Of a stretch of DNA of 64,000 nt, positions 21,943-44,183 are shown in pieces. A program made the position numbers and the translations under genes. The notes under the pieces were generated by a model. The model worked only from the letters and a program-made list of their open reading frames with translations, searched no databases and was not told where the DNA came from. Positions within the stretch are counted from its first letter, which is position 1; every line of letters starts with the position of its first letter. The DNA is from an uncultured delta proteobacterium (GTDB lineage Bacteria; Myxococcota_A; UBA9160; SMWR01): contig CAWHTE010000007.1 in the NCBI GenBank assembly GCA_963832165.1, positions 224,001 through 288,000 on the forward strand, given 5' to 3'.

Positions 21943-21943
21943 G

Positions 21944-22717: not shown

Positions 22718-22935
22718 CTCGCTACCCCTTATCCGGATCCGTATCCGCGTGTTACCCGTCGCTATTCGGGTCGATTCTGCCGGTACTGGAACAGGCATAT
22801 CGTGACGGGAATCGGCTCGGAGGTCCAGCATTTTTTCTGATATGTCACAGATAGTTAACGAGCGCGTCCTCACCCCGGAGGAGTGTCGCTTCTGCTCAGG
22901 GGGCACAGTTTGGAGGAGGGGTTTTACCCAACATT

Positions 22936-23449: not shown

Positions 23450-23451
23450 GT

Positions 23452-24231: not shown

Positions 24232-24459
24232 CTCGCTTCCCCTTCTCCGGATCCGTATCCGCGTGTTACCCGTCGCTACTCGGGTCCATTCTGCCGGTAC
24301 TGGAACAGGGTCATCTTGACCGGAATCGGCTCCGAGGTCCAGCCTTTTTTCTGATACGTCACGAATAGTTAACAGGGGTGTCCTCACCCCGGAGGAGTGT
24401 CGCTTCTGCTCAGGGGGCATCGCGTTGGCGGAGGGGTGCCCAACAGTGCAGAAACGACA

Positions 24460-27400
24460 CTATTCGTCACGCTCCAAACCAGAGATCGTTCGCGAGGATC
24501 GCCACCAGCGTCTCCGGCTGGTCCGCCCATGCTTCGGGAACCGAGGTTCAGGACCGGCGGGAGCCGCCGAGAAGTCAGCCCCCGCGGGCGCGCTCGCTCC
24601 CGGGGCCTCGATTCCGTCCAGGCGCGCGAGGATGGCCTCGAGCCCGTCTTCGCCGGTGCCGAGGTCGTCGTCGAGATCGGCGACCAGAAAGCTGTCGCCG
24701 TTGCCGAGCGAGCGCAGCGCGATGCGGTCGCCGTCGATCAGGCCGTCGGGATTCACGAGACCTTCCACCGCCACGAGGAGCTGGTCGCCCTCGCTGGGGT
24801 TCAGGTCCGTGATGATCTCGAAATCATTGAGGCTCTGCGGCTCGTGGCCGAGCACGAAGAGGTCCGTCCCGAGCCCGCCGGTGAGCTGATTCTGCCCTCC
24901 TTCGGCCACCAGGGAATCGGCGCCGGCGCCGCCATTCAGCGTGTCGTGTCCGAGCAGCGCGTAGAGGTCGTCGTTACCGCCCGCTGCGAACAGGAAATTG
25001 TTGCTCGCCGTACCGACCAACACCTCGTCGCCACTGCCTCCATTGACGAAGCTCGTCTCGGGAGGCGATCCGGCGCCGATCACGAACAACTGCACGCGCG
25101 CGGTGTTCACACCGTGGCTGGTTTCGATCGCGTACTCGAAGCTGTCGAGCCCGGTGAATCCATCGTTGCCGACGTAGATGATCCGATCGTCATCGAGCGA
25201 ATAGGCGAGCCCGTTCGCTGGCGAAGCTACTGATCTCCAGGGAGAGGACGTCGTCGGGATCGAGCGGCAGGCCGTTGGCGTCGAGATCATTCGCGAGCAC
25301 GTCGACGATCTGATTGCCGGACGGCCTCGTCACGAATGTGTCGTCGGCGGGAAGTGGGAGCTGGATGTTGAAGATCACGCCGTCGCCGAAGACGAGCCGT
25401 TCGACCGTGCTGAACGAATCCGTGCCTTCGGATCCTTCGTCATGCGTGACCGTCAGCAGCTCGAGGTCGATGCTGTAGTCCACTCTCGGCCCTGCGAAGT
25501 GCGCGATGTCGAAGCCAGTGCCGCCGATGAGCTCGTCGTCGCCGTCCCCACCGGTCAGCGAGTCATTGCCTGCGCCTCCGATCAGGGTGTCGCCCCCACC
25601 GGCGCCCGCGAGTACATCGTTGCCCGCGCCGCCCGAGAGCGTGTTCGCTCCGGCGCTCCCGATCAGCGAGTCGGCGCCCGCACCACCTAGCGCGGACTCG
25701 ACGCTCGCGAGCGAGTCGCTGCCGATATAGGAGCCCGTCGCGGTGCCGGTGCCGAGGTTCACCGCGATGGCCCCCGTCGCCCTGGAGGCGTCGTAGGTAT
25801 CGCTGCCACCGCCACCGACGATCGTGTCGCTGCCGTCGCCCGATGTCGCCACGATCGTGTCGTCGCCGCCGCCACCGGTGAGCGTGTCGGCACCCGCGTT
25901 CCCAATGAGGACGTTGTCGTGGCCGTTGCCCGTCAGCGCGTCGTCAGCCGAGCCCCCCGTCGCGTTCTCGATCCCCGCGAGCTCATCGTCGCCGAAATCG
26001 GCGCCGCTCGCGGTGCCCGTACCGAGGTTGACCGTCACGGGCGCCGACGCGGCGGATGCGTCCCACGTATCGGATCCGAGACCGCCATCGACGTCGTCGT
26101 CGCCGGGGCTCGCGAACACGACGTTGTCAGCGCCGTCGCCGATCAGCGTGTCGTTCCCGACCCCTCCCTGGAGGTTCTCGAAGTCGAACAGGCGGTCCGC
26201 GCCGATCTCGAGGCCCGATGCCGTCCCGAACGGCAATCCACCGCCTGAAAGGTCGATCGTCACGGCGCCGATCGCTGCGGCATAGCGGATCGTGTCGGCG
26301 CCTCCTCCGCCGCGATAGTTGTCTTCGATCGCGTCGAGCGCCCCGTCGATTACGTCGTTGCCCGCTCCGCCGAGCACTTCGTCCGTACCGGCGCCGTCGC
26401 GCAAGAGGTCGGCGCCGGGTCCGCCGTCGAGCGTGTCGTTGTCGGCGCCGCCGTCGAGCACGTCGTCGCCACCTGCACCCTCGAGCACATCGTCGCCCGA
26501 GCCGCCCGAGAGCGTGTTCGCGCCGCCGTCACCGACGAGCGTGTCGTCGCCCGAGCCGCCCGTCGCGTTCTCGACGTTCGTGAGCGTGTCGCTGCCGATG
26601 TCCGCACCCGTGGTCGAGCCCGAGTCCAGGTCGACCGTCACGGAACCCGTCGCGGCCGAGGCATCGTAGAGATCGATGCCGGCGCCGCCGCCGAGCGCGT
26701 TGTTTCCCGAGCTTCCGACGAGCGTGTCGTCGCCCGAGCCACCCGTCGCATTCTCGACGTTCGCGAGCGTGTCGCTGCCGATGTCCACACCCGTGGCCGA
26801 GCCCGAGTCCAGGTCGACCGTCACGGGGCTCGTCGCGGCCGAGGCATCGTAGAGATCGGTGCCGGCGCCGCCGTCGAGCGCGTTGTTGCCCGAGCTTCCG
26901 ACGAGCGTGTCGTCGCCCGAGCCGCCCGTCGCGTTCTCGATGCTCGCGAGCGTGTCGCTGCCGATGTCCGCGCCCGTGGCCGAGCCCGAGTCCAGGTCGA
27001 TCGTCACGGAGCTCGTCGCGGCCGAGGCATCGTAGAGATCGGTGCCGGCGCCGCCGTCGAGCGCGTTGTTTCCCGAGCTTCCGACGAGCGTGTCGTCGCC
27101 CGAGCCCCCGTCGCGTTCTCGACGTTCGCGAGCGTGTCGCTGCCGATGTCCACACCCGTGGCCGAGCCCGAGTCCAGGTCGATCGTCACGGAGCTCGTCG
27201 CGGCCGAGGCATCGTAGAGATCGGTGCCGGCGCCACCGTCGATGGCGTTGTTGCCCGAGCTTCCGACGAGCGTGTCGTCGCCCGAGCCGCTCGTCGCGTT
27301 CTCGACGCTCGCGAGCGTGTCGCTGCCGATGTCCGCGCCCGTGGCCGAGCCCGAGTCCAGGTCGATCGTCACGGAGCTCGTCGCGGCCGAGGCATCGTAG

Positions 27401-28358
27401 AGATCGATGCCGGCGCCGCCGTCGAGCGCGTTGTTTCCCGAGCTTCCGACGAGCGTGTCGTCGCCCGAGCCGCCCGTCGCATTCTCGATGCCCGCGAGCT
27501 GGTCGTCGCCGATGTCCGCGCCGCTCGCGGTGCCCGCGCCGAGGTCGATCGTCACGGACGTCGACGCGGCGGATGCATCGTAGGTGTCGGAGCCGAGACC
27601 ACCCTCGACGTCGTCGTCGCCGGGGCTCGCGAACACGACGTTGTCCGCGTCGTCGCCGATCAGCGTGTCGTTCCCCAGACCGCCCTGGATGTTCTCGACG
27701 TCGTACAGGCGATCGGAGCCGATCTCCGCGCCCGATGCGATTCCGAACGGCAGGCCGCCGCCCGTGAGATCGATCGTCACTGCGCTGGCTGCGGTCGCAT
27801 AGCGCACCGTATCGACGCCTTCGTCTCCGCGATAGCTGTCCTCGGTCGCATCGAGTGCGCCATCGATGACGTCGTTGCCGGCGCCGCCGTGCACTTCGTC
27901 CGCACCGGCGCCATCGCGAAGTGCGTCGTCGCCGGCGCCGCCGAAGAGCGTGTCGGCGCCACCGCCGCCGTCGACGTCCACCGCGGTGCCCGCCGAGATC
28001 CCCGAGGCGTCGAAGACGTCGGCGGCGTCGCTGCCCGTGAACTCGATGCGTGTCACGCCAACGGAGGCAAGATCCCCCGAGAGCGTGACGTCGGATCCGT
28101 CGGGATCCCCGAGGAACGCGACGACCGGTACGTCGCGCACCGTGATCGTACGCGCATGACGTCGCCCGTACTGCCGAGGTACGAGAACAGCAGCGTGAGA
28201 ACGTCGGGGGTGAGCGCGTCGATCGCGCCGACTACCGCGGTGCGATCGCTCTCCCCGTTGTCGAGATCGACGACGAGCCGGTCCCCTGAGGTGAAGTCCG
28301 GGCTCTGCGAGCTATTGCTCGAGCCGTCGCTTACGTCATAGGTGAGGTCAGGGGGCAA
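24460..28358 (-). CDS. RTX calcium-binding repeat protein A (T1SS substrate), split by frameshifts at ~28150, ~27106 and ~25230
   Basis: Consecutive ORF pieces rich in GGxGxDxL nonapeptides, an Ig/cadherin-like domain (DVLAND...DSFEYAI) and an IITD-containing C-terminal secretion domain. The true stop may be the TGA at 24548-24550. Confidence 0.8.
26530..27500 (-). repeat. Five near-identical 183 bp (61 aa) tandem repeats inside RTX A
   Basis: CGAGTCCAGGTCGA recurs at 26621, 26804, 26987, 27169 and 27352 (spacings 183, 183, 182, 183). Confidence 0.92.
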
Positions 28359-28373
28359 GGCACCACGAGGTTA

Positions 28374-28996
28374 CTAGAGCCGGACCCGAATCCGCTTGCG
28401 CCTCGAGCAGGGCGAGGGCCGCCGAGCCCGCCGCGAGCATCGACAGCAGTCCCGGCTCCGGGAACTCCACGACCGGTACGCCGAGGTTGAAGCGGAAGCC
28501 CGGCCACTCCGGCTCGTTGAACCCCTCGGCCTCGAGCGAGAGATCGTCCAGATCGAACTTGCCGTCGAGGTTGCCGAGGCCCGTCACGTTGTTCGGAAGG
28601 ACCAGCCCGTGGTAGTACGCGCCGTTCCCGCGGAAGATGATCCGCGTGGCCGAGTTCAATGCGACGGGAGTCAGCGTGAACGTGCCACCGACCTGTGTGG
28701 CATCGGGCACGACGATCTCGAGGCTCGTCAGCTCGTACGACACGATGTCGCCGCCGTGTGATTGTGCCGTGGCTGTCGTCGTAGTCCAGCTCCCCAGTCA
28801 CGTCGTCGCCGACGTTGACGCCCTCCGTCTCGCAGTTCGCGGCGGGCTCGGGGCATCCCGGAGCAAACGGGCTGTCCGCGACGCTCGTCACGTTGCCGAT
28901 CAGCAACAGGTTAACGGTGGCTGCGAGCGCGCCGCTCGCAACCAGCGTGCCCACGGCGAGACCGAAGAACAGATAGGTCATGCGAAGCTTCGGCAT
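28374..28996 (-). CDS. PEP-CTERM sorting domain protein 3, with two frameshifts (~28760, ~28405)
   Basis: Signal peptide (LVASGALA), then FPEPGLLSMLAAGSAALALL and, in the shifted frame, the basic tail RRKRIRVRL-TAG. Confidence 0.72.
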
Positions 28997-29020
28997 TCGA
29001 TGTCTCCCTCGAGATCCCGT

Positions 29021-32000
29021 CTACACCAGGTCGTTGAAGATGATGTCCGCCGCAGTGGCGCCCGTGACGTCGTCGAGGCGAGCAATCACCGACTCGAGCC
29101 CGCCGCTACCCGTACCGTCGCTGTTGTCGAGGTCTGCGAGCAGGAAGGTGTCGCCACCGAACACGAGAACCCCGACTTCGCTCGACGTGATGTCGCCATT
29201 GTCCTGGGTCAGGCCCTCGAGCGCGATCAGCACCTGATCGCCCTCGCCCTGGTTCCAGTCGGTGATGATCTCGAAGTCGTTGACATCGTTCGACTCGTGG
29301 GTCAGCACGAACAGATCGGTGCCGATACCGCCGGTGAGCTGGTTCGCGCCACCGTCGGCGACCAGCAGGTCGTTTCCGCTTCCGCCGTTCGCCGTGTCCT
29401 CTCCGATCAGCGTGTAGAGATCGTCGTTGCCGCCATTTGCGAACATGAAGTTGGCGTCGGCCGTGCCGACGAGGATCTCGTTGCTGTTGTTGCCGTTGAT
29501 GAAGCTCGACTCTGCGAGCGAGCCCGGCGCCTGGACGACCAGGTCGACCTGCGCGGTGTCGCTGCCCTCCGCCGTGGTGATGGTGTAGTCGAAGCTGTCG
29601 GACCCCGAGTAGCCATCGTCGCCCACGTAGAGGATGCGATCGTCGTCGAGCACGAGCGCGAGCCCGTTGCTCGGCGCAGCGCTCACGATGTTCGCCGTCA
29701 CGCTGACCGACGTGAGCGGCGTGATCCCGTCGCTCGCGGTGTCGTTGTCCAGGACGCTGACCGCCAGGTTGCCGGAGGGCCCCGTCGCATCGAGGTCGTC
29801 GTTGGCGATCGGCGACGGAACCAGATCGATCGTCTGATCGGCGAACTCCAGATGCTCCATGGTGGAGTAGGAGTCCGTGCCGTCGTTGCCGTCGCCCAGG
29901 TTGTTGTCCGTGACCGTGCCGTTGAACGTGTCGACCGTGTAGTCGGCGTAGTTGCCGCTGAACACCGCCGTGTCGTCGCCATTGCCGCCGACCAGCGTGT
30001 CGTTGCCCGCGCCGCCGATCAGGCGATCGGAGCCGTCTCCGCCCGAGATTCCATCCGCCCCGCCGTTTCCGGTCAGGACGTTCGCCACCGAGCTGCCGAT
30101 GATGTTGTCGGATCCCCCGCCGCCGATCGCATTCTCGATGCTCGTGAGCGTGCCGGTTCCGATCCCGGAGTAGGTCCCGGCGGTGAGGTTGATCGTCACA
30201 CCCGACACGGCCGCCGAGGAGTCGTAGGTGTCGGTCCCTCCGACGCCGTCGTTGGTGTCGGTGCCCGCACTCGCGTAGATCACGTTGGCGAGTGTGTTGC
30301 CCGTGAGCGTGTCGTTGCCCGAGCCTCCCTGCAGGTTCTCGAAGTCGTAGAGGCGATTCGAGGCACCGATCTCCGAGCCCGATGCATTGCCGAACGGCAG
30401 GAAGCCGTTGGTGAGATCGATCACCACCGCAGCCGTTGCGGTCGAGAACCGGATCGTGTCGGTCCCGGACGATCCGCGGTAGGTGTCGTCGTCCCCGTCG
30501 AGGGCGCCATGGAACGTGTCGTCGTTGGCACCGCCGTCGGCGTCGTCGATGTCGTCCCCGTCGTGGATCGTGTCGTTGCCGGCTCCGCCGTCGATCAAGT
30601 CGTTGCCCGCACCGCCCGAGATCACGTCGGCTCCGCCGTTGCCCGTGAGCACGTTCGCGGCGCCGTCGCCAGTCAACGTGTCGGCGCCCGAGCCACCAGT
30701 CGCGTTCTCGACGCTGGCGTGAGCGTGTCGCTGCCGATCGTCCGAACCCGAAGCCGTGCCGCTCGCAGGCTGATGCGTCACCGCAGCGCGGCCGCGACGC
30801 GTCATACGTGTCGGTATCGCTGCCGCCGTCGGCCGCGTCGTTGCCCGCGCTGGCCACGAGCGTGTCGTTGTCTGCATCGCCCGCGAGGTTGTCGTTGCCC
30901 GCGCCGCCGTCGAGCGAGTCGTTTCCGAGGCCGCCCGTGAGCCCGTCGACGCCTCCGTTGCCGGCCAGCGTGATCGTCGTTGGCACCGCCGTCGATCGGG
31001 TCGTTGCCGGCGCCGCCCGTGAGCGAGTCATTCCCGCCGCTGCCGTTCAGCGCGAGCGTCGTCGTCGACGTCACCCCCGACCCATTGAACACGTCGTTCG
31101 CGGGGCCGCCGTTGAAGGTCACGGTGCTGTCGGTGATCCCCGTCGCCGCCAAGTCTCCCGACAGCGTGACAGTCGAGCCGTCCGCGTCGGCATTGATCAC
31201 GAGCTTCTCGGCGTCGGTCACCGTCGTGGTCGCCGCATCGTCGAAGAGCAGCGAAAGCTCGTCGCCCGGAACGGCCGGCACGGTGCCCGTGAGGCCCGAA
31301 GTCCCGGCCCCGCCGTTGTCGAGATTCACCGTCAGCGTGTCGCCGAGCGCGGTCTCCCCGCCTTCGCCGCCGTCGATCCATCGGAGCCGTCGCCGAACGC
31401 GTAGGTGATCGAGTCGTCGCCTGCGCCGGCCGCGACCGCGTCGTTGCCGCCGAGGCCGTTGATCGTGTCGTTGCCCGCGCCGCCGTCGATCAGGTCGTTG
31501 CCGGCTCCGCCGGTCAGCGGTGTCGTTTCCGCCAGCCGTCGAACGTCGAGGGACTGGGTCGAAGTGAGGCCGGAGGCGTTGACGATGTCCGCCCCGTCGC
31601 CACCCGAACGGGCCGCCCGTGACCGTGACCGTCTCGAGCGCCGTCGGAGCGAAGTCGCCCGTGATGTTCACGGTGTCGCCGCCGTCGCCGAGAACGATCG
31701 TCAAATTCTCGGTGTTGTCGAACGTGACGGAGCCAGCCGCACCAGCGTTCATCGTCACGAGCACGTCGGTCGTTCCGCCGGGCTCGACGGTGTCGGTCCC
31801 CGGTGCCGTGACGGCGAAGGTGATCGGGGACGCGCTGGGAGTGCTCGGCGGAGTGATGTTCAGCAACAAGACGGTGTCGCTGCCAATGCCGCCATTGACG
31901 ACATCGTTCCCTGTGGAGGGCAGGTTCAGGTACCAGTCGTCGCCGTCTCCCAGCGAGGCCGTATCGCTGCCGGCAAGGCCGAAGGCGATGTCGTTGCCGG

Positions 32001-35000
32001 TGGAGCCCGTGATGGCGTCCACGCCGACGAACGAGCCGTTGATGAACGCGGTCGCGTTCGGCGTGACACCGAAGTTGCCGAATGTTCCGCCGCCGAATGT
32101 GATACCCGAGATATCGATCTCGTCGATCCCATCGGCCGGCGCGGGAGACAACGGATTGCCGCAGGCTCGGGTCGATGTAGAGCCGCGATCCAAAGCGGCC
32201 GAGCTGCCCGGCGTCTCCGATCGTCGTGCCGCTGAAGGAGAGACCTTCGATATCGGTGTAGCCCTGGATCGAAGACGAGGGCATTCTCGTAGATCGCCGG
32301 TCACGTGACGCCGTCGAAGCTACACGACGCAGCGCATCGGTGCTCGACGCCACGGGCATTCCGCCGCTGAGATAGCCGGCGATTCTGGATGCCGTGGTCG
32401 GCGCTGAACGCGGGCACTGCCGATGTCGTCCCGGTCACCGTCACACCGGTGAATGCCGCGGCGTTCGCCGGTGTACTCGAACAGCAGGATGTCGCCCGCA
32501 CCACCCGATCCCAGCTGGTTGTCGCCATTGCCGCTCGAGTTGGCGAGGTTCGAGATCTCGACGTTGAGCGCGTTACCGCCGCCGTTGATGAAGATGGCGT
32601 TCAGGTCGTAACCGGAGGCCACGACGTTGTCGATCGCGATCGTGCCGAGCTGCGTCGCGGAATTGCTGAACGGTGCCGTTGAACCGGATGCCGCGATCCG
32701 TGGCGGCCACGAGCGACGAGTCGAGCGTGAGGTTCGAGATCTCCACGCGATCGCTCGCGCCAGGCACGGTCGCACCGTCGATCGTGAACCCCGCGACGCT
32801 CACGTCGCTGGCATCGCCCGATGCACCTGTGATGGTCACCGCCACGTCGACGAGGACGTTCTCGTTGTACGTGCCGTCCAAGACCAGGATCGTGTCGCCA
32901 TCGCTCGCCGCATTCACCGCCGCCTGGATCGTCGTGAACGAGCCGAACGTGCCGGCTGGTCGACGATGAGAACGGTCGTGTCCGCAAACTCGAGCGACTC
33001 GACGCCGGTCAGCGTGTCGGTGCCGTCGTCGATCGGGTAGCGGCTGCGTTGTCGGCCACGGAGATCCGCGGCGGACCCGTAAGGAAGCTGACCGTGTAGT
33101 CGGCGAAGTCGCCCGAAACGGGCAAGTCGCTGTTAACGCCGTGTCGAGGCTATCGTCGCCCGTGTCGCCCGTGAGCGAATCGTTCGTCGTGCCGCCGGTC
33201 ACCGTGTCGACGCCCGCGCCGCCCGTCAGGGTATCGTTGCCCGATCCGCCATCGATGTGTCGTTCTCGGCTGCCACCTTCGAGCGTGTCGTTGCCACCGT
33301 TACCGTTGATCACCTGCTCCACGCCGGTGACGCCGGAGCCGTCGTACACGTCGTCGCCCGCGCCGCCCGTGAAGGTCACCGTGCTCGGGGTCACGCCCGC
33401 CAGCGACAAGTCGCCCGTCAGCGTCACGGTCGAGCCGTTCGGGTCCGCCGTGATGGCGATGTTCTCGACGCCGCTGACCGTGTCGACCCCGCTGCCGCTG
33501 CGCTCCACGTGAGCTCGAGCTGATTCAGGCCGTTGACGATCCCGGACAGATTCGAAGTCGTACCCACGCCATTGTTGAGCAGGACATTCAGCGTATCCGT
33601 GCCGAGCCCGCCCGTGATCGAGTCGCTGCCGTCACCCACGAACTCGACGAACGTGTCGTTCCCGCCGCCGCCGTTCAGCGTGTCGCTGCCGCCGTTGCCG
33701 ACGATGATCGCGTTCTCGTTGCCGCTCGTGATCACGTTGGCGCCGGCGTCGCCCTGCAGCGCCATCGGGTCCGGCGCGCCCGTCACGTCGATGCCCAGGG
33801 TCGAGAAGTCGATGTTCCCGCCGACCCCGTCGATGTTCACCGCGAGCTGGAAGCTCGTGCTGTCCGCCGTGATCACGACGTTCGACCCCGTGAGGCCGTT
33901 GATATTGTCGTAGTTGATGATCGCGATCGGCACCTTCTCGTAGCTGCCGCTGATCGTGATGTCCGTCAGCGACACGATGCCCAGCGCACCGGTGTCGGAG
34001 CGCATCTGGATCCCGTTCTCCGCGATCGCGACGTTCTGGCCGCCGTTGGAAAGCGTCAGATCCGAAAGGGTCGCGTTCCCGTTGTACTGGAACAGGATGA
34101 TGTCGCCATCGCCGCTCGACGACTGCACCGGATCGCCGGTGTTCTGACCGCCGTTGTCCGTGAACGTCGAATTGCTGATCGTCGATGTTGCCGAGGTTGG
34201 TCCCGTTGAGCACCTCGACGCCGTTGCGGTAGTTGCTCGTGAACGCGGAATCGTCGATCGCGAGCGTGCCCAGCGTCGCGCTGGACGTGAACTGGATGCC
34301 GCTCTGGGTCGCGTCCACGAAGGCGATCCCGCTGATCGAGAGCGTGTCGCCGGCGCCCAGGTCGCTGTCGATCAGGAAGCCGGACTGGTTGGCGCCCGGA
34401 GGCGTCACGATCGTGGCGCCGGGGCCGGAGCTGCCGGACCCGACGATCGTCAGATCCTTCGTGATCGTCACGCTCTCGTTGTACGTACCCGACGAGATCA
34501 GGATCGTGTCGCCGGCGTTCGCCGCATTCACCGCCGCCTGGATCGTCGTGAACGAGCCGAAGGTGCCGGTCTGGTCGACGATCAGAACCGTGGTGTCCGC
34601 GAACACGAGCGACTCTACGCTGGCCAGGGTATCGGTGCCGTCGTTGCCATCGATTCCCGGCTGGTCGTCGACCACCGTGATCTGCGGCGGACCCAGACTG
34701 AAGCCCACCGAGTAATCGGCGAAGTCGCCCGCAAACTGGGCGGTGTCGCTGTTGGCGCCGCCGTCGAGGCTGTCGTCGCCCGCGCCGCCCGTGAGCGAAT
34801 CGTTCCCCGTGCCGCCGGTCACCGTGTCGACGCCCGCGCCGCCCGACAGCGTGTCGTTGCCGATCCCGCCGTCGATCGTGTCGTTGCCGCCGCCGCCCGA
34901 GAGCGTGTCGTTGCCACCGTTGCCGTTGGCCACCTGGTTCACGCCGGTGACGCCGGAGCCGTCGTACACGTCGTCGCCCGCGCCACCCGTGAAGGTCACC

Positions 35001-37167
35001 GTGCTCGGGGAGACGCCCGCCAGCGACAAGTCGCCCGTCAGCGTCACGGTCGAGCCGTTCGGGTCCGCCGTGATGGCGATGTTCTCGACGCCGCTGACCG
35101 TGTCGACCCCGCTGCCCGCTGCGCTCCACGTGAGCTCGAGCTGATTCAGGCCGTTGACGATCCCGGACAGATTCGACGTCGTACCCACGCCATTGTTGAG
35201 CAGGACATTCAGCGTATCCGTGCCGAGCCCGCCCGTGATCGAGTCGCTCCCGTCACCCACGAACTCGACGAACGTGTCGTTCCCGCCGCCGCCGTTCAGC
35301 GTGTCGCTGCCGCCGTTGCCGACGATGATCGCGTTCTCGTTGCCGCTCGTGATCACGTTGGCGCCGGCGTCGCCCTGCAGCGACACCGGGTCCGGTGCGC
35401 CGGACACGTCGAAGTCGAACGCTCCGAAGTTGATGTTCCCGCCGACGCCGTCGAAGACCACCGACTCGTTGAACCGCGTGCTATCGGCCGTGACGTCCAC
35501 GTCCGTAACCGTGAGGTTGTTGACGTCGTCGTAGTTGTTGAACGTAATCGCCCGCTTCTCGTAGAGCCCGCTGACCGTGATGTCCGTTGAGCGTCACGGT
35601 GCCCAGGGAACCCGTATCGGCGCGGAACTGGATCCCGTTCTCCGCGTACTTCGTGTTGGGAGGGATGATCCCGACGGTGCCGTCCTGAGATCCGTTGGTG
35701 AGCGTCAGGTTCGACAGCGACGCATTGCCGCCGTACCCGAAGAACAGGATGTCTCCGTCTCCGCTCGAGCTGTGCACGGGGTCGCCCACGAACTGACCGC
35801 CGTTGTCCGTGAAATTGGAGCCGGTGATCGTCGTGTTGGTGACGGCACTCACCGAGTTCGCCTGGATCTCGATGCCGTTTTGGTAGTTGCTCGTGAAGTC
35901 GCAGTTCGTGATCGTGAGCTGATCGATCCCCGCCGCGCCCGACACCTGGATGCCGCTGCGACCCGCGTCGTCGAACGTGATCCCGCTGATGCGTCAGCGT
36001 GCCCACCGCACCGAGATTCGTGGTCACGACGAAGCCGGACTGGTTGGCACCCGGAGGCGTCACGATCGTGCTGCCCGCGCCGTCGCCGACGATCGTCAGA
36101 TACTTGTCGATCGTTACGTTCTCGTCCCAGGTCCCCGACGCGATCATGATCGTGTCACCGGCGGTCGCTGCATTCACCGCGGCCTGGATCGTTGTGAAGC
36201 CGCCGCCGCCCACCAGCGAGGAAGTCCGGACCGCTGGCGTCCTGAACGCGTCTCGATCTCGGTCAGCGTCTCGGTGCCGTCGGTGCCCGAAGCCACCTGC
36301 CACGCGCTGCCCGTGTACGTGATGTTCGAGGAGAGGAGCTCGTCGCTGTACACCGCGATGTCGCCGAGGCCTGCGCCCTCCGTGACCGCCGTCGATCGTG
36401 TCGGTGCCGCCATTGCCGCGCAGCGTGTCGTTCCCGGTGCCGCCCGAAAGCGCGTTCGCGTTGATGTCGCCCGTCAGCGTGTCGGCGCCGGATCCACCGA
36501 TCGCATTCTCGACGCTCGCCACGGAATCCGTGCCGATCTCCGTGCCGGTGGCCGAGCCGCCTAGCGTCACGCTCACGCCCAGTGTCGTCGCCGACGCGTC
36601 GTAGGTATCGGTGTCATCTCCGCCCGTGATCGTGTCGTTTCCAGCGCCCGCGATGATCGTGTCGTCGCCCGTGCCGCCGCTCTCGATATCGTTGCCCAAC
36701 CCGCCGAGGAGCGTGTCGCTGTTTGCACCACCCGAGAGCGAATCGTTGCCCGCGCCGCCGGTGAGCGTGTCGTCACCGCCGTTGCCGTTGAGCGTGAGCG
36801 GTGTGGTCGAAGTGATTCCCGAGCCGTCGAACGAATCGTCCGATCCACCGCCGGTGAACGTGATCGCGTCGATTGCCGCGAGCGACAGGTTGCCGGACAG
36901 CGTGACGTCGGAGCCGTCCGCGTCGGCGTTGATGATGACGCTCGAGAAGTCCTGGATTTCGAGATCATCATCGCCGACGGTGTTGGCATCGGTGTCGAAG
37001 TTCAGATCGACGACGTCGCTGCCCGTGAGCGGACCCGTGCCAGCCGCGACCGCACCGGTGACGTTCGACTTGGTGCCCAGCGTCTCGTTGTCGAGATTGA
37101 CTGTTAGGCTGTCGTCGTTTCCGTCGAGGTGGTTGACGCCAGACGGCGGGTCGTACGTGATGGGCAT
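29021..37167 (-). CDS. Giant RTX protein B (~2,700 aa if repaired) with three beta-helix modules; many frameshifts
   Basis: Starts MPITYDPP after an AAGGA RBS. RTX nonapeptides throughout; [15 protein letters not shown]...GTY/W.E.V at ~36200, ~34550 and ~32930; C-terminal Ig-like plus secretion domain paralogous to RTX A. Confidence 0.8.
32880..35440 (-). repeat. Long internal direct repeat in RTX B (offset ~1.62 kb)
   Basis: 33150-33760 is almost identical to 34770-35380 ([21 protein letters not shown]...[19 protein letters not shown]). Confidence 0.9.
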
Positions 37168-37247
37168 CGTGTGGTCCTTCGCGGTTGAGCGCGGCCGAGG
37201 CTGCGCGGCGAAATGCCCCGGCAACTTACCACCGCGCAGCGGCGACA

Positions 37248-37265
37248 AGGGGAATTATTTCCCCT
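37248..37265. promoter_or_regulatory. Palindromic putative operator upstream of RTX B
   Basis: AGGGGAA-TTAT-TTCCCCT, a perfect 7-4-7 inverted repeat about 80 bp upstream of the ATG. Confidence 0.45.
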
Positions 37266-37537
37266 GTGCGCTGATTAGTCGCGATTTCTTCACCGACCGA
37301 TCGATCGTTCATCGAAAGCACGGGAGTGCTTAGTCGCGGTGAAACGACATTCGCTGCGCGAGCGATCGAAATAACAACAGGCCGGTGCCCTCGTGAGAGG
37401 ACGGTCGGGGACTACACAGGATCGGCGGTACCGATACCGACAGTGCTCGAAGTATCAGGCGAGCAAACCATCGGCTTGACGACCCGTCAGCAGCGACCGA
37501 AATAGCGGTTCAGCACCGCCCGCCGCCGTCGAGCTGA

Positions 37538-38875
37538 CTACTCCTCGTGCAGTGCGCGGAAGAAGCTGTCGGAGAGCGGTGCGATCGCGTAGCGGAAGAA
37601 GGTCCGCTCGCCCGTGACGATCAACACCTCGGCGGGCATGCCGGGCTGGAGCACGACGTCGCTGAACCGCGCGAGCTGATCGGGCGGGATCGAGACATGA
37701 GCCTCGTAGTACGAGACTCCCGTCTCCTTGTCGACGAGCGCGTCCGCCGAGACATGATCCACGCGTCCGACCAGGATCGGGACCACGCGCTGCCGGAACG
37801 CCGTCAGGCGCACGTTGGCCTCGAGGCCCACGCGCACCATCTCGATGTCGGTAGGGCGAATGCGAGCCTCCACGAGCAGGTCGCCACCCGTCGGGACGAT
37901 GTCGAGGATCGCGTCGCCGCGATTGATCACACCCCCGGGCGTGAAATAACGCAGCTTGACGACGGTTCCAGCAATCGGCGCGACGACGTCGCGCCGGGTC
38001 AGCACGTCCGTGGCCGCGCGCAGCGCCTCCTCGGTCTCCGAGAGGCGTTCGCGAACATCGTGCTGTTGAGAAACCACCTCATTGAGCAGATCGCTCTCGG
38101 TCTGGCTGATCTCGAGCCGGGCTTCGCCGATCTTCTGCCGGGCGCGCGCGGCCAGCGCCGCTGAGCTCTGGCGCATCCCCTCGAGCTCGGCGACCTGGCG
38201 GCGGAACTCGAGCAGCCGTGGCTTCGCCTCGAAGCCGCGCTCGACGAGCGTCTCGATGCTCGCCATCTGCTCCCGGACGCTGTCGAGCTGGCGTTCGGTC
38301 GATTCGACCCGAGCGGCGTAGCTCGCCGCCTCGGATTCGAGCTGCACGATCGTCTGCTCGAGGATCGACACGCGACCGAGATACGCCTCTCGGCGCTTGG
38401 CGAAGATGCGCTCCTGGCCGGTGATCAGCTCGTCGACACGAGGCTCGCTTCGCCGGTCCGTCAGCCCCGCTGGAAAGATCACCGCTTCGGCGGTCTCGCG
38501 CTCGGCGCTGAGCCGCGCGTACTCGGCGGAGAGTGCGTCGTGCCGTGCCTGGTACATCTCGCGCGATGCGCGCGACTGCGTCTCGTCGAGACGCAGCAGA
38601 ACGTCTCCCGCCTTCACAGAGTCGCCTTCACGCACCCGGATCTCGCGGATGATCCCCCCCTCGAGGTGCTGCACCGTCTTGCGCTGGTCGCGCACCGCGA
38701 CGTGGCCGGGTGCGACAGCGGCGCTCGAGAGCGGCGCAAGCAGGCTCCACAGCGCGAAGCCCCCGACGAAGAGAACGACGACGGCGGCACCCAGGTAGAG
38801 CTCGCGCTGGAATTGCGGGCCCTCGGCGAGCGCGCGAGCGCTGCGTGCCTCGAAGTCGGTCGCGCCCGTCGTCAT
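37538..38875 (-). CDS. HlyD family type I secretion membrane fusion protein (PrtE/AprE-like)
   Basis: KTVQHLEGGII, coiled coil, APIAGTVV, VSADAL, LQPGMPAEVLIVTGERT motifs. Confidence 0.95.
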   Translation of the reverse strand: MTTGATDFEARSARALAEGPQFQRELYLGAAVVVLFVGGFALWSLLAPLSSAAVAPGHVAVRDQRKTVQHLEGGIIREIRVREGDSVKAGDVLLRLDETQSRASREMYQARHDALSAEYARLSAERETAEAVIFPAGLTDRRSEPRVDELITGQERIFAKRREAYLGRVSILEQTIVQLESEAASYAARVESTERQLDSVREQMASIETLVERGFEAKPRLLEFRRQVAELEGMRQSSAALAARARQKIGEARLEISQTESDLLNEVVSQQHDVRERLSETEEALRAATDVLTRRDVVAPIAGTVVKLRYFTPGGVINRGDAILDIVPTGGDLLVEARIRPTDIEMVRVGLEANVRLTAFRQRVVPILVGRVDHVSADALVDKETGVSYYEAHVSIPPDQLARFSDVVLQPGMPAEVLIVTGERTFFRYAIAPLSDSFFRALHEE

Positions 38876-40590
38876 TCACTCGACTCCACCGCGCGCGGGA
38901 AGACGGGGCGGGGAGCGGGTACCGCGGCGGGTTCGACCCTGGCGAGGTTCGCGAGCACCTCGTCGCGCGGGCCGTATTGCTCGATGGCGCCGTCTTTCAA
39001 CACGAGGATTCGATCCATCGCCTGCACGACGCTCATCCGGTGCGCGATCACGATCACGGTGGCGCCGCGCCGCTTCAGATAGGCGAGCGCCTGGATCAGG
39101 GCGTGCTCTCCGTCGGAATCGAGATTGGCGTTCGGCTCGTCGAGCACCACGAGCCGCGGCTCCCGGAAGAGAGCGCGCGCGAGGGCAATGCGCTGGCGCT
39201 GGCCGCCCGACAATCGCCTTCCCGCCGTACCGATCTGCGTGTCGTAGCCCTCGGAAAGGCGCAGGATCATCTCGTGACATCCCGCGAGCTGAGCTGCCTT
39301 CACGACCTCTTCGTCGGTCGCTTCCACCAGTCGCGCGATGTTCTCCCGCACCGAGCCCCCGAAGAGCTCGACGTCCTGCGGCAGGTAGCCGACGTGATGG
39401 CCGAAGTCTTCGCGCGGCCACGTGAAGACATCGGCTCCGTCGAGCCGGACCACGCCCGATACCGGCTTCAGCACGCCGACCAGAATTCGCGCGAGCGTGG
39501 TCTTGCCCGAGCCCGAGGCCCCGATCAATGCCAGCGAACCACCGGCCGGTAGCGAGAAGCCGATCCCCTTCAGCAGCGCCTGCTCGGCCTTCGGGAACGC
39601 ATACACGACTCGCTCGATGTCCAGGCGCCCCTTGGGCGTGGGCAGGGCAGTGCCGCGCTCGCGCAGGCGGGCGCGCCCGAAGAACTCGACGAGGCGGTCG
39701 TACGCCTGGCGCGCGCCGACCAGCTGCCGCCAGGTGAGGATCGCCTGCTCCACGGGCGAGAGGGCGCGCGCGAGGATGATCGAGGCGCCGATCATTCCGC
39801 CCGGCGTCATCTCGTTATCGAGCACGAGGAAGGCGCCCAGCCCGAGCATTCCCATCTGCAGCGCGAGCCGCAGGAAGCGGCTCGTGGAGGCGATCACGCC
39901 GCCGCGATCGCTCGCCACCTGCTGGTCGGTGATCACCTCTTCGCCCTGACGATCCCAGCGCGAGACGATCGGCCCGAACATTCCCATCGCATCGATCACT
40001 TCCGCGTTGCGCAGCGCGTCCTCGGCGCTCCTCGCGTTGGTGATCTGGTTCCAGTTCGCTGCCTTGAGCCGCTCCCGCGTCGTGATCTCATTGAGCACCG
40101 CGAGACCGAGCAGCACGAGAGAACCGACGAGCGCCATCGAGCCGAGCGCCGGGTGGATCAGGAAGATCACCAGCAGATAGATGGGTGTCCACGGGGCGTC
40201 GAAGAAGCAGAGCAACGTGGGGCCGGAGAGAAAGTTTCGCAGCTGCGCGAGGTCTTGCAGCGACTCGGCGCGGTAGGTGTAGCCCTGCAGCTGAGCTTCC
40301 AGAGAACGCGCGAACGTCTCGGGGGCGAGGCTCCGCTCCACCCAGTTGCCGACGCGCACCAGCATGCGGGCGCGCACCCAGTCGAGCGCGGCGAAGGCAA
40401 GCAGAGCCGCAACCGCGATCAGGGTCAGGAACAGAAGCGTATCGGTATTGCGGCTCCCGAGTACGCGATCGTAGACCTGCATCATGTACAGCGGGATGGT
40501 CAGTGCGAGCACGTTCAGCGCGAGGCTGAACGCCGCGGGGTACAGGAGCGCCCGGCGGCAGCGGCGGCGCGCCTCGTCGAGGGTGCTCAG
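38872..40590 (-). CDS. Type I secretion permease/ATPase (PrtD/AprD-like)
   Basis: PLYMMQVYDRVL, FFDAPW, GASGSGKT, LSGGQRQR, LDEPNANLD. The frame extends to a CTG at 40590 overlapping the recombinase TGA (LSTLDEARRRCRRALLYPAAFSLALNVL). Confidence 0.93.
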   Translation of the reverse strand: MSTLDEARRRCRRALLYPAAFSLALNVLALTIPLYMMQVYDRVLGSRNTDTLLFLTLIAVAALLAFAALDWVRARMLVRVGNWVERSLAPETFARSLEAQLQGYTYRAESLQDLAQLRNFLSGPTLLCFFDAPWTPIYLLVIFLIHPALGSMALVGSLVLLGLAVLNEITTRERLKAANWNQITNARSAEDALRNAEVIDAMGMFGPIVSRWDRQGEEVITDQQVASDRGGVIASTSRFLRLALQMGMLGLGAFLVLDNEMTPGGMIGASIILARALSPVEQAILTWRQLVGARQAYDRLVEFFGRARLRERGTALPTPKGRLDIERVVYAFPKAEQALLKGIGFSLPAGGSLALIGASGSGKTTLARILVGVLKPVSGVVRLDGADVFTWPREDFGHHVGYLPQDVELFGGSVRENIARLVEATDEEVVKAAQLAGCHEMILRLSEGYDTQIGTAGRRLSGGQRQRIALARALFREPRLVVLDEPNANLDSDGEHALIQALAYLKRRGATVIVIAHRMSVVQAMDRILVLKDGAIEQYGPRDEVLANLARVEPAAVPAPRPVFPRAVESSE

Positions 40591-41198
40591 GGCAGCCAGC
40601 TGTTGCGCCCGCGCATGACCTCGAAGAGGTCGCGGGGCGCGACGCGCGCGATGTAGCGCTCAGTCGTCGCAGAGCTCCGATGGCCGAGCTGGGCCTGGAT
40701 CAGCCCGATCGGTACTCCTTCGCGCGCCAGCTCGGCCACCAGCGTGCGGCGCAGTACCTCGGCCGATATGCGTTTCCCGATCCTCGCCTTCGCGCCGAGC
40801 CGCGTGAACAGCGCGCGTACGTACGAGGGGCTGAGTCGGTCCCCTCGGAGCGTGCAGAACAGCGGAGCTGTCGGCTGGATCTGGAGGGATTTCCTTCTCC
40901 GGATCCACATGTCCAGGACCTGATAGGAGGATGCATCGAGCGCGACCACCCGGCTCGGTCGGCTGACGTGAATCGTCCTGTCGAGACCATCGACGTGCAT
41001 CTCGGCGAGGGAGATCGATTCCGATACGCGGAGCCCACAGCGATACATCACCGTGATCATCGCGCGATTGCGCAGCCCGGTGGACGCTTGGCTCGAGCAC
41101 ACCTCCAACAACCGCCGCACTTCGTCTGGCGTGAGCAGCGCACCACCGTCGGAGCGCGATTCCGGGTCCGCAGTCGTCGAGTGCCCGGTCGTCAACAT
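40587..41198 (-). CDS. Catalytic-domain-only tyrosine recombinase-like protein (~203 aa) with degenerate active site
   Basis: LTPDEVRRLL, RNRAM...GLRVSE, IQAQLGH...TTERY are retained. HxLR reads EVLR and the Lys hairpin (GKG) is missing (TIHVSRPSRVV). Confidence 0.88.
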   Translation of the reverse strand: MLTTGHSTTADPESRSDGGALLTPDEVRRLLEVCSSQASTGLRNRAMITVMYRCGLRVSESISLAEMHVDGLDRTIHVSRPSRVVALDASSYQVLDMWIRRRKSLQIQPTAPLFCTLRGDRLSPSYVRALFTRLGAKARIGKRISAEVLRRTLVAELAREGVPIGLIQAQLGHRSSATTERYIARVAPRDLFEVMRGRNSWLP

Positions 41199-41312
41199 GG
41201 GGGTGCCCCGCGCGTTTGATGCGAGCGTGGACGGGTAACGGATGCTAGTCGAATCCGCTGAACGCACCAACGTATCATGCCCTGTGAACTCTTCGAGGAT
41301 GGAATGAATCGG

Positions 41313-41423
41313 TCACCTACCAGTTATGACGACTCATGACTCGCCTACCAGTTAAGACTTCTCATTACTCGTTACCAGTGAAGGTTTTTGATTACTCACC
41401 TTCCGGTCGAGGCTTTTCATTGC
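41313..41423. repeat. Array of four tandem ~28 bp degenerate direct repeats
   Basis: TCACCTACCAGTTATGACGACTCATGAC / TCGCCTACCAGTTAAGACTTCTCATTAC / TCG-TTACCAGTGAAGGTTTTTGATTAC / TCACCTTCCGGTCGAGGCTTTTCATTGC. Confidence 0.85.
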
Positions 41424-41514
41424 TGCTTGAGCAGCCCGTCCCCCAAAGGGGGTATACACGCCGCCGAATTCATGGGAGTGTCGTCGAGCGGCCAGACCGC
41501 GAAGATTCGAAGAC

Positions 41515-43236
41515 ATGAGCAGCCTTGAAGTAGCTGTAAGTAATCACGAAACGACACCGAATCCCGGATCAGCCGCCATCTACTACGAACGCGACGGATT
41601 CGACACGTCGCGTCGGAAGCTGATGGGGCGCCACGTGGCAGGTGCCAGTTTCCTGAGCGCCATGGCGCGTTACGCGGCGGCGTCGGAACTCGTCGCGGTG
41701 ACCCCGACCGCGGAGCACTTCGCGGACTTCCAGGCGCGAGTCACGGCTGCGAAGGCGAGCCGGGCGGTCCGCTGGATCCCGGCGAGTGAGCCGGAAACGC
41801 TCGCCGAGGTGGGCTGTCTCTTCTATCCCGGCGTTCCGCCGGCGGATTGGGCCTGGATCCGCCGGCGCGATGGGCAGCGCCGCTTCAGCCTGTGTGGGAT
41901 CACGCACACAACCGCAAGCGTCCGCGCGATGAAGGCTGTCGGAGAGCTCCTCGTGGCGCCGTTCCAGAGCTGGGACGCTCTCATCTGTACCTCGAAAGCC
42001 GTCTACGAGATGGTCGAGCAGCTGCTCGATGGGTATGAGGACTATTTGAGCGCGCGAATGGGAGGGCTCAAGCCAGACCGACCACAGCGGCCGATCATCC
42101 CCCTCGGAGTCGATTGCGAAGCGCTCGCGCCGGGAACGATGGCGGCCTCCCGTGGACGCGCGCTGCGCGCGCGCGCCGGGATACCCCTCGACGCTTTCGT
42201 CGTTCTGTTCGTCGGCCGTCTCTCCTTCCATGCCAAGGCCCACCCTCTCCCGCTCTATCTCGCGCTCGAATGCGCGGCCCAGCGCAGTCCCGGCCCTCTC
42301 TACCTGCTGCTCGCGGGATGGTTCGCGAACGACGGCACCCAGAAGCAGTTCGAAGACGCGGCGCGGCTCTTCTGCCCATCCGTGCAAGTCGTCACCGTCG
42401 ATGGGCGCAATCCCGAGATTCAGCACGACGTCTGGCACGCGGCCGACATATTCGCATCGCCGTCTGACAACATTCAGGAGACGTTCGGCCTGGCACCCGT
42501 CGAAGCGATGGCCGCGGGCCTTCCCACCGTGGTCTCGGATTGGGACGGCTACCGCGACGGTCCTCGACACGGCGTGGAGGGCTTCCTGATCCCGACCTGG
42601 CTCGCTCCTGCGGGATCCGGAGAGGATCTCGCGCGGCGTCATCAGCTCGAAATCGACGACTACGATCACTACATCGGGCACGCCGGACAGTTTGCGGCCG
42701 TCGAAGTGGCCGCGATGGCGCGCGCCTTCGAGACGCTGATGGTGCGCCCCGAGCTGCGGCAGGAGATGGGTGTGCGCGCGCGCCGCCGCGCCGTCGCCGC
42801 CTTCGACTGGCCCGTGATCATCGCGCAATACGAAGAGCTCTGGACGGAGCTCGCGGCGAGGCGTTCCGCCGAGGAGGAGAACGCGCCGGTTCGGCCGCAC
42901 GCATCACCGGCACCGCTCAACGCCGATCCATTCGCGCTGTTCGCCGGCTATCCCTCCGAGCGCCTGCACGCCGACACGCTCGTGAGTCTCCTTCCCGGAG
43001 CGGTTCCGCACGCGCTTCACGAGCGGACGAGCTTGTTCATGAACGCATTGGCACGCGCGTTGATCTGCCGGCCCGAGACCCTCGACGCGCTCTTCACCGA
43101 GCTCGACCGACATCGTGAATGCAGGAGCGCTGACCTGCTCGGGGCGCTCTCGCCCGCGGATCGCCGCGCCGTCCAGCGAACGCTGGTGTGGCTCGCCAAG
43201 CTCGACCTCGTGCGACTCCGCAACCCGGATTCGTAG
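41515..43236 (+). CDS. Glycosyltransferase family 4 protein
   Basis: VGRLSFHAKAHP and SDNIQETFGLAPVEAMAAGLP (EX7E) motifs. Confidence 0.92.
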   Translation: MSSLEVAVSNHETTPNPGSAAIYYERDGFDTSRRKLMGRHVAGASFLSAMARYAAASELVAVTPTAEHFADFQARVTAAKASRAVRWIPASEPETLAEVGCLFYPGVPPADWAWIRRRDGQRRFSLCGITHTTASVRAMKAVGELLVAPFQSWDALICTSKAVYEMVEQLLDGYEDYLSARMGGLKPDRPQRPIIPLGVDCEALAPGTMAASRGRALRARAGIPLDAFVVLFVGRLSFHAKAHPLPLYLALECAAQRSPGPLYLLLAGWFANDGTQKQFEDAARLFCPSVQVVTVDGRNPEIQHDVWHAADIFASPSDNIQETFGLAPVEAMAAGLPTVVSDWDGYRDGPRHGVEGFLIPTWLAPAGSGEDLARRHQLEIDDYDHYIGHAGQFAAVEVAAMARAFETLMVRPELRQEMGVRARRRAVAAFDWPVIIAQYEELWTELAARRSAEEENAPVRPHASPAPLNADPFALFAGYPSERLHADTLVSLLPGAVPHALHERTSLFMNALARALICRPETLDALFTELDRHRECRSADLLGALSPADRRAVQRTLVWLAKLDLVRLRNPDS

Positions 43237-43243
43237 AACGGAG

Positions 43244-44092
43244 ATGACTTCAACGGAAGCGGCGTTCCGTGGACTGGACCTTCGGCTGAGCCGGCTCCGT
43301 CCGTGGCGCCACGGCCTGATGCTCTTTCTGGCCGCCGACAAGATCATCGGCCGAGCGCTCGAGCTCTACGGCGAGTTCGCCGAAACCGAGAATCGCGTGA
43401 TGGTGCGGCTCGTCGGGGCGGGCGACCTCGTGCTGGATGTCGGAGCCAACGTCGGCACCGTCACGCTCCCGCTCGCCGCGCACGTCGGGCCGAGTGGCCG
43501 GGTGATCGCATTCGAACCGCAACGGCTGGTCTTTCAGCATCTGTGCGCGAACATCGCGCTGAACGGCCTGACCAACGTCGACGCGCGATGGGCTGCGGTC
43601 GGCGCGACCGCGGGGAGCGCTCGCATCCCGGCGCTCGATCCCACGCTCGCCGAGAACTTCGGCGCGACACGGCTGGCCGCGGATGGTGAGGTGGTCGCGG
43701 TGACACCCATCGACAGCTTGCAGCTCGAGCGGTGCGACCTGATCAAGATCGACGTCGAAGGGATGGAAGACGACGTGCTGAGAGGCGCGGAGCACACCAT
43801 CGCGAAGCACCGTCCGGCATTGTATTTCGAAGCCAAAAAGAGTGATAACACACGATGGTGTCTATCGTGGCTGTTGCAGCGGGACTATCGCCTCTACTGG
43901 CACTTCGCGCCGTTCTTCAGCCGACCGAATCATCGCGGGCTGGACCACAATGTGTTCGGCGATTACGGAGACATCAACGCGCTGGCGCTTCCAGGGGAAA
44001 GCAACAGGCACCTGCACATGCCCCCGGTAACCGCTGCCGATGCCGATTGGCAGGTGGCCTACCACCGTTGGGGCGATGAACAGAAGCGCTAG
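43244..44092 (+). CDS. FkbM family methyltransferase
   Basis: LDVGANVG, AFEPQ, IKIDVEGME motifs; GGAG RBS. Confidence 0.92.
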   Translation: MTSTEAAFRGLDLRLSRLRPWRHGLMLFLAADKIIGRALELYGEFAETENRVMVRLVGAGDLVLDVGANVGTVTLPLAAHVGPSGRVIAFEPQRLVFQHLCANIALNGLTNVDARWAAVGATAGSARIPALDPTLAENFGATRLAADGEVVAVTPIDSLQLERCDLIKIDVEGMEDDVLRGAEHTIAKHRPALYFEAKKSDNTRWCLSWLLQRDYRLYWHFAPFFSRPNHRGLDHNVFGDYGDINALALPGESNRHLHMPPVTAADADWQVAYHRWGDEQKR

Positions 44093-44117
44093 CGCTACGC
44101 GACTGCCTGGCGTTCTC

Positions 44118-44173
44118 GTAGGCGGTCGTGTCGAGCTCGCTAGGGGATGCTCCCGGACCCGCGCGAGAACGCG
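44118..44173 (-). repeat. Inverted degenerate remnant of the selB 3' end
   Basis: Reverse complement of 44118-44139 (CGAGCTCGACACGACCGCCTAC) matches 21801-21822 and 23308-23329 at 21/22; 44162-44173 matches 21772-21783 at 10/12. Confidence 0.62.
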
Positions 44174-44183
44174 ATCCGGATCG

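Follow-up and report, generated by a model that had tools for sequence, protein, structure and literature searches.

In bacteria, the documented examples of dead tyrosine recombinases with a regulatory role come mainly from the repressor of SPbeta-like phages, whose authors suggest wider recruitment (PMC10516654, consulted in part). That protein, MrpR/YopR (SroF), is the master repressor of these phages; it has lost catalysis and binds repeated boxes, according to the portions consulted of two reports (PMC10516654; bioRxiv 10.1101/2025.11.27.690993). Here we describe a degenerate recombinase encoded in a 64,000-nucleotide stretch of DNA from an uncultured delta proteobacterium (assembly GCA_963832165.1, contig CAWHTE010000007.1, positions 224,001 to 288,000), called the window below:

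40587..41198, minus strand: tyrosine recombinase of the degenerate SAExLRR clade, lacking a core-binding domain; predicted to regulate by binding DNA

The window protein shares with MrpR/SroF a recombinase fold from which catalytic residues have been lost, and a predicted role as a sequence-specific regulator at several sites of one element, here a candidate motif at the 5' ends of the units of a genomic island. As far as the consulted parts of those reports go, MrpR/SroF is a clamp of core-binding and catalytic domains, about 320 residues long, from a Bacillus SPbeta repressor operon, whereas the window protein has 203 residues and a catalytic domain only, is encoded in a chromosomal surface-gene island, and belongs with MrpR/SroF neither by domains nor by context. 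An origin independent of MrpR, which was compared by description, is suggested because the protein is nested among intact relatives to which it is about 45-50% identical. Thus, the protein would resemble MrpR/SroF in its working while representing an independent lineage without the core-binding domain.

Dead tyrosine recombinase domains are also reused, for binding DNA or protein, in TnsF of Tn6022 and in DUF3504/Crypton-derived regulators (PMC10293859, PMC3212892, in the parts consulted). TnsF, however, selects targets for a transposon and its catalytic domain is truncated (PMC10293859), and the DUF3504 proteins are eukaryotic (PMC3212892); neither context is present here. FimB and FimE are likewise about 200 residues long and encoded near surface-structure genes, and the first-pass annotation of this DNA suggested a comparable switch. 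Such a role is unlikely: the catalytic pentad of the window protein is broken, and its scores against the FimB and FimE NCBIfam models (46 and 52) lie far below the cut-offs (221 and 222). No invertible promoter was identified, with the short inverted pairs near the gene not assessed for conservation or inversion. The nearest proteins are small intact sisters (e.g. P0023, L055) of the same size and fold, about 200 residues without core-binding domain and 45-50% identical, which come from plasmids, phages and islands. Some have the same motif upstream, but they differ in keeping the GKG-type Lys, the HxxxRH signature and the Tyr. No description of the SAExLRR clade was found among titles and abstract beginnings in the open-access literature, nor in the consulted parts of PMC8138268, PMC8987985 and PMC13239906, although the subgroup tables of PMC8138268 could bear on it.

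Our favoured reading, with a probability of roughly 0.6, makes the protein a domesticated regulator that binds DNA without cutting it and acts on its own locus and on adjacent surface genes, with an ancestral recombination half-site as its operator. Put plainly, a DNA-cutting enzyme minus its cutting residues has been kept intact in soil bacteria and is now probably a gene regulator. A regulatory role over the island between selB and lepB is likely. To that extent the regulator proposed by the first-pass annotation stands, but the comparative evidence leads away from the 28-bp repeat array through which it was thought to act and towards a different motif.

A recombinase fold without its cutting residues

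The open reading frame (ORF) is uninterrupted and its 203-residue product matches PF00589 with an E-value of 4e-31 and a score of 108 bits (cut-off 27), which places it in the tyrosine recombinase superfamily fold; the earlier description of an intact recombinase consisting of the catalytic domain only was correct. There is no N-terminal core-binding domain, and the scores against the XerC and XerD equivalog models (99 and 93 bits against cut-offs of 330 and 335) place the protein outside both families. The AlphaFold model has a pLDDT of 91. In Foldseek its top match is XerA (5hxy, TMq 0.74), and other tyrosine recombinase catalytic domains match too. The PADLOC hidden Markov models (HMMs) for anti-phage defence assigned no family to P0001.

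Active tyrosine recombinases use the set R-K-H-R-H/W-Y, which is incomplete here. R57, R150, H173 and Y182 are kept, but the His-II position is occupied by E147, the residue after Arg-II (normally His) is R151, and the Lys of the beta2-beta3 hairpin is missing. Both Arg residues, the His of the LGH motif, the Tyr and the change of His to Glu had been read correctly in the first pass; the hairpin, then called deleted, is in fact about four residues shorter, and its strands (75-78 and 83-86) remain in the model. In Cre, H289E is one of five His-II substitutions that are inactive in vivo, and no substitution of K201 is active in vitro, with K to R retaining low activity in vivo (PMC2943603, consulted in part). 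Because either change by itself cripples recombination by Cre, the loss of recombination activity is strongly indicated, by analogy, for the window protein.

Scans of the locus with Rfam, ARAGORN and models of sigma-70 promoters and terminators gave no hits; no tRNA target is seen, given the Rfam and ARAGORN results. Positions 40000-42500 contain 72 short inverted pairs. One of them, a 20-bp inverted repeat (85%; 40619-40638 and 41279-41298), brackets most of the recombinase gene.

A conserved degenerate clade

For comparison, a family set of 271 homologous domains was assembled from the 120 best sequence hits and the 150 best profile hits. Canonical residues are found in 179 of these domains, whereas in 32 the His-II position is Glu, an Arg follows Arg-II and there is no GKG-type Lys, the Lys being scored by sequence pattern rather than by structure. 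At the nucleophile position the 32 have Tyr (24) or Phe (7), and one is partial. The 31 full-length members form a single clade in a 160-tip tree (support 0.93), and the clade is recovered again in a 146-tip tree with the locus proteins (SH-aLRT 88); in both trees the canonical sequences are represented by a random subset. Tyr has changed to Phe on at least three branches, and L144 and P0273 have Leu at this position. The window protein keeps the DNA-reading helix (xSY[VL]R[ASN]).

Ratios of nonsynonymous to synonymous substitution (dN/dS, Nei-Gojobori, ten loci) are 0.13-0.62 in 44 of 45 pairs, with dS equal to 0 in the remaining pair, and all bootstrap upper limits are below 1; the values are rough, as dS is high and biased by GC content at third codon positions. 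Between the window and L018, a collapsed version of the same island, dN/dS is 0.28 for the recombinase, 0.33 for lepB and 0.34 for selB. As judged from these sequences, the clade is under purifying selection.

The distribution is patchy: with 14 candidates scored per genome, 10 of 225 genomes of the class match at 1e-45, five of them with clade-type proteins. The record name of one clade member assigns it to a Myxococcota bacterium. Neighbours of the rep, par, primase, toxin-antitoxin or transposase type occur at 13 of 22 scanned loci of intact sisters and at none of the clade loci scanned. A single-protein search of genome contigs returned three distant loci only, and a plasmid tblastn search at 1e-20 returned nothing, intact relatives included, and is hence uninformative. 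The viral search gave 21 loci, of which 14 are intact by pattern and seven unclassified.

One clade protein, P0273, carries its recombinase domain, which lacks Lys, His-II and Tyr, fused to PAS, PAS and GAF domains, and is nested within the clade in the 146-tip tree. Sensor domains and a DNA-binding domain in one chain are the layout of a one-component regulator. The fusion is known from this sequence only, in a search of proteins of 453-2,000 residues with 8,000 candidates scored (lengths of 357-452 lay outside it).

Other degenerate forms occur in the family set. A second degenerate lineage (P0038, P0064, P0069, P0076, P0084, P0087-P0090 and P0109), monophyletic at 0.94, has Gln or Ser at His-II, an LRY signature and mostly no hairpin Lys. 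In P0121, P0123 and P0124 a degenerate recombinase domain is followed by an intact one in a single chain, possibly as a fused heterodimer, and the dead domains form a clade of their own. The 146-tip tree also contains a 58-tip degenerate group that includes the QGLRY lineage. Another genome, G054 (L102, L106, L108-L111, L148), holds six intact family members.

A candidate half-site at clade loci

The motif was recognised in the flanks of clade genes, where its seed was noticed by eye, window sites included, before counting. Among 8,192 7-mers AGTGTCG ranks first, with occurrences in 7/8 independent contexts against a background of 4.4% (p 2.4e-9); the ranking is the same with alternative representatives, and the extended motif is AGTGTCG(C/T)TTC. 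The form AGTGTC[GA] is found near 10 of 11 clade loci as opposed to 10 of 94 intact loci, or near 10/12 clade loci if the partial locus L091, which is below the score cut-off of the 11-locus count, is added. After dereplication the figures are 9/9 and 6/53, with L038 excluded for length. The flanks of L144 and L145, unseen when the motif was chosen, have one and five sites, respectively. In the window the following sites are found:

41477..41487, plus strand: candidate operator half-site AGTGTCG in the divergent region between recombinase and GT4 gene; present in L018 too
41548..41558, minus strand: candidate half-site GGTGTCGTTTC, facing the 41477 site, just inside the GT4 ORF (ATG at 41515); core conserved in L018
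37341..37351, minus strand: variant AATGTCGTTTC of the candidate half-site, located between the prtE and RTX genes; the only exact copy in the genome
24396..24406, plus strand: candidate half-site, 165 bp upstream of the probable start of PEP-CTERM gene 2; shares first place among the hits of the position weight matrix (PWM) in the genome
24451..24461, minus strand: the other half-site upstream of PEP-CTERM gene 2, pointing inward; sixth in the genome ranking; at the selB/PEP duplication junction
22882..22892, plus strand: copy, by duplication, of the 24396 site; candidate half-site, 165 bp upstream of the probable start of PEP-CTERM gene 1

The motif stands at the 5' end of the GT4 gene, the RTX gene and both PEP-CTERM genes of the island. 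The RTX-side site, about 175 bp ahead of the likely RTX start (distance read by hand), and the GT4 sites are weaker variants. In a partly held-out test, a PWM made from 17 sites of other organisms ranked island sites 1, 2 (the duplicated pair) and 6 in 5.5 Mb. When the pattern was refined on these sites, 6 of 19 genomic matches were inside the island, which is circular and only descriptive.

Several clade and related loci show the motif in further arrangements. Inward-facing 27-bp motif pairs occur at L018, L144 and L145, and the intact L055 has a 28-bp motif palindrome ahead of its start. Among intact relatives, the motif is present in 3/5 of those with a clade-like reading helix against 3/48 others, a post hoc comparison. 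A PEP-CTERM gene adjoins the clade gene in 3/8 contexts by HMM and in a fourth by eye, the latter without a family hit; the intact locus L013 also adjoins one. None of the 21 viral loci has the clade motif. An intergenic 28-bp palindrome of the motif is present elsewhere in G054.

Broader uses of the motif were considered and rejected. Only 2 of 55 PEP-CTERM candidates have it, both in the island, which rules out a general PEP-CTERM box. The palindrome AGTGTCR-N12-15-YGACACT does not serve as a general site, with hits in 14 of 225 class genomes compared with seven control hits, mostly in ORFs and none in the window's genome, G000. In 44 family genomes the exact 13-mer occurs about as often as expected by chance (23 hits against 21 in the control); 27 of 32 hits lie in ORFs according to a crude gene caller, and four of the five intergenic ones are at clade loci used to derive the pattern. 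The motif is not a lineage-wide regulator box, since the 13-mer is at chance level and mostly in ORFs.

A working scheme can be proposed on this basis. The ancestor would have been a small mobile-element tyrosine recombinase, whose descendants would have retained the fold and the DNA-reading helix, lost the general-acid Lys and acquired Glu at His-II. Because of the last two changes the protein should bind, and perhaps bend, DNA without cutting it. It would bind the half-site RAGTGTCG(C/T)TTC, singly or as an inward-facing pair; this half-site may descend from the ancestral recombination site. Sequence comparison suggests that the recombinase binds DNA at these half-sites and through them would regulate its own promoter region and the neighbouring cell-surface genes: here GT4-FkbM, RTX and PEP-CTERM, and probably its own operon with prtD and prtE. 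It is precedent only that favours repression as the sign of regulation.

The 28-bp array and the secretion genes

The first-pass annotation placed the recombinase at the head of a type I secretion system (T1SS) operon and took an adjacent repeat array as its target. The features concerned are:

41313..41423, no strand: 4 x 28 bp degenerate tandem array, unique to this locus
38872..40590, minus strand: prtD-type T1SS ABC transporter (TIGR01842 cut-off passed), inferred CTG start overlapping the recombinase stop
37538..38875, minus strand: prtE/HlyD membrane fusion protein (TIGR01843 cut-off passed)

The stop of the recombinase overlaps the prtD frame as CTGA, as had been reported. At L018 the overlap at the same place is ATGA, which supports the inferred prtD start. 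Judging only by the overlaps, the recombinase, prtD and prtE may be co-transcribed. L018 represents this island, likewise between lepB and selB, in a collapsed state: its recombinase is intact, while at 700-2900 the GT4 gene, prtD and a PEP-like gene are broken remnants. Among 12 other clade loci, some redundant and some short, only L018 has any prtD or GT4 similarity, and none has prtE. The expected conservation of T1SS linkage is not found, then, beyond one pseudogene remnant in 12; the coupling to prtD is old within the island rather than a property of the clade, as it appears only in L018.

The four-copy array itself is real, with spacings of 28, 27 and 28 bp and identities of 84, 100, 80 and 68%; its periodicity score was equalled or exceeded in none of 500 shuffles and in one of 600 genome windows of low GC content. 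Its fold is not unusual (z 0.71 and -1.35). No unit recurs elsewhere in the genome at up to five mismatches, and unit 4 has one chance-like match at six. The clade motif is not contained in the array, where the best PWM score is 5.8. Contigs from four sequencing runs (short, shallow and without bearing either way) showed no joint at the array.

Alternative explanations

If the protein bound this array, it would be a dedicated regulator or switch of the T1SS operon, as originally suggested. The array does lie 115-225 bp upstream of the recombinase gene, the overlap with prtD is kept in L018, and in an 11-6-11 frame the arms of units 1 and 2 are symmetric at 7/11 positions. However, the symmetry falls to 4/11 and 3/11 in units 3 and 4, and no comparable array was found within 330 bp upstream at 13 clade entries (including three redundant or near-identical pairs) or 64 other (sister) loci. 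The intergenic region of the orthologous L018 has none, and no clade locus matches any array unit within eight mismatches (at least nine everywhere). With the T1SS adjacent in one of 12 other loci, neither array nor linkage is conserved across homologues, two outcomes that the first-pass annotation had itself named as refuting its proposal, and in L018 the recombinase outlived the T1SS, which we count in favour of the regulator acting through AGTGTCG half-sites. We regard the array-binding version as very unlikely; the array is probably a local duplication or the site of another factor. That the gene is what is left of the island's integrase, decaying and without present function, would fit its place in an inserted island and the patchiness of the clade, found in 5 of 225 class genomes. 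This explanation, which the first-pass annotation had named as one that would undo its proposal, is largely refuted and highly improbable: the same substitutions are fixed in 32 diverged proteins with open frames, dN/dS is well below 1, and clade genes also occur in mutually unrelated contexts.

The motif could instead be the site of a host-encoded regulator, with the degenerate protein either an architectural factor that bends DNA or a dominant-negative partner blocking an active recombinase. Clade loci share a host lineage, L019 and L022 have the motif equally far upstream of a promoter-like element, and the fusions of dead and intact domains mentioned above occur in a separate lineage. Yet no genome-wide enrichment of the motif is seen in the family, intact relatives whose helix is similar have it too, and G000 lacks a close intact family member (31-33% identity for its three other matches), so we consider this unlikely. 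A slow, atypical but active recombinase at AGTGTCG sites, duplicating or rearranging surface-gene cassettes, is suggested by the four residues that the protein keeps together with an Arg in its hairpin, by the low activity of Cre K to R (PMC2943603, consulted in part), and by the 27-bp inward-facing palindromes of L018, L144 and L145, which resemble core sites. Most suggestive is the selB/PEP duplication, whose junction falls at the inner edge of the 24451-24461 site. But the selB partner at this junction is a poor site (PWM -5.4, rank 99 of 1,950) with microhomology of only about 5 bp, no motif lies at the island ends, the nucleophile has been lost repeatedly within the clade, and His-II to Glu inactivates Cre (PMC2943603, consulted in part); continued activity is quite unlikely.

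The reading of the protein as a non-cutting regulator has points against it as well. The window member retains R57, R150, H173 and Y182, and its hairpin holds an Arg; a duplication junction at a motif site is compatible with recombination too. The strict motif is missing at two clade loci, L038, the single miss of the 7-mer count, and the partial L091, while L016/L017 and L019/L022 carry it without a recognisable surface-gene neighbour. The two sites closest to the recombinase, some 280-360 bp away from its start, have low scores (10.3 and below 8). Because the seed was chosen after the window sites had been seen, the PWM test is held out only in part. Finally, a host factor could explain the motif because nearly all clade loci are from one bacterial lineage and most intact loci are not; of about ten intact loci from the same class, two have it.

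The surrounding island

The remaining features of the locus are:

21943..44183, no strand: whole surface-protein island, 22 kb, between selB and lepB
41515..43236, plus strand: GT4 glycosyltransferase, start uncertain
43244..44092, plus strand: FkbM-family methyltransferase, start approximate
24460..37248, minus strand: RTX Ca-binding-repeat surface-protein region, many frameshifted ORF pieces
28331-28996, within the RTX region: PEP-CTERM-like gene, frameshifted
21944..24420, minus strand: tandem duplication with PEP-CTERM surface-protein genes at 21944-22906 and 23452-24420, separated by a partial copy of selB

The GT4, FkbM, prtD and prtE neighbours are as first annotated. Five relatives were searched: three genomes of the same genus (G001, G003, G005) have selB and lepB directly adjacent, from which we infer that 21943-44183 is an inserted island, and the other two have them on separate contigs. 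The GT4 protein as query had no match in any of the five. The island ends showed no att-like direct repeat. Between selB (21801-21822) and the right end of the island (44118-44139) there is an inverted match of 22 bp (21/22), which was set aside as possibly chance because a similar copy occurs on contig C11.

The tandem duplication spans 21169-24455 and comprises the 3' part of selB and a PEP-CTERM gene. The copies are 84-96% identical, the selB copy is internally deleted, and the junction of the duplication, near 22936, meets the inner edge of the motif site. Public contigs show indels relative to the RTX region at 28405, 30641-30860 and 34183; thus, some of the breaks there may be assembly errors. 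A second prtD/prtE pair (44% and 34% identity) lies on the same contig (C7 of G000, about 557000-560100), and no TolC gene was noticed in the island.

Significance

More tentatively, and at somewhat less than even odds, the clade may be an undescribed family of bacterial transcription factors derived from a mobile-element recombinase: a bare catalytic domain that uses the old half-site as operator for surface loci and that has been wired into a PAS/GAF sensor. It may in turn be part of a larger radiation of dead recombinases, with the 58-tip group and the dead-plus-live fusions. If the regulatory reading is true, this would be an independent, chromosomal case of a dead-recombinase regulator whose sisters are still alive at about 45-50% identity. 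With its predicted operator and its sensor fusion, it would offer a compact system in which to follow the change of a recombinase into a transcription factor, and intact relatives with the same site would make the step from enzyme to regulator directly testable. Clade proteins are labelled XerC, XerD or integrase in metagenome annotation; genes with such labels may thus be regulators rather than markers of mobility.

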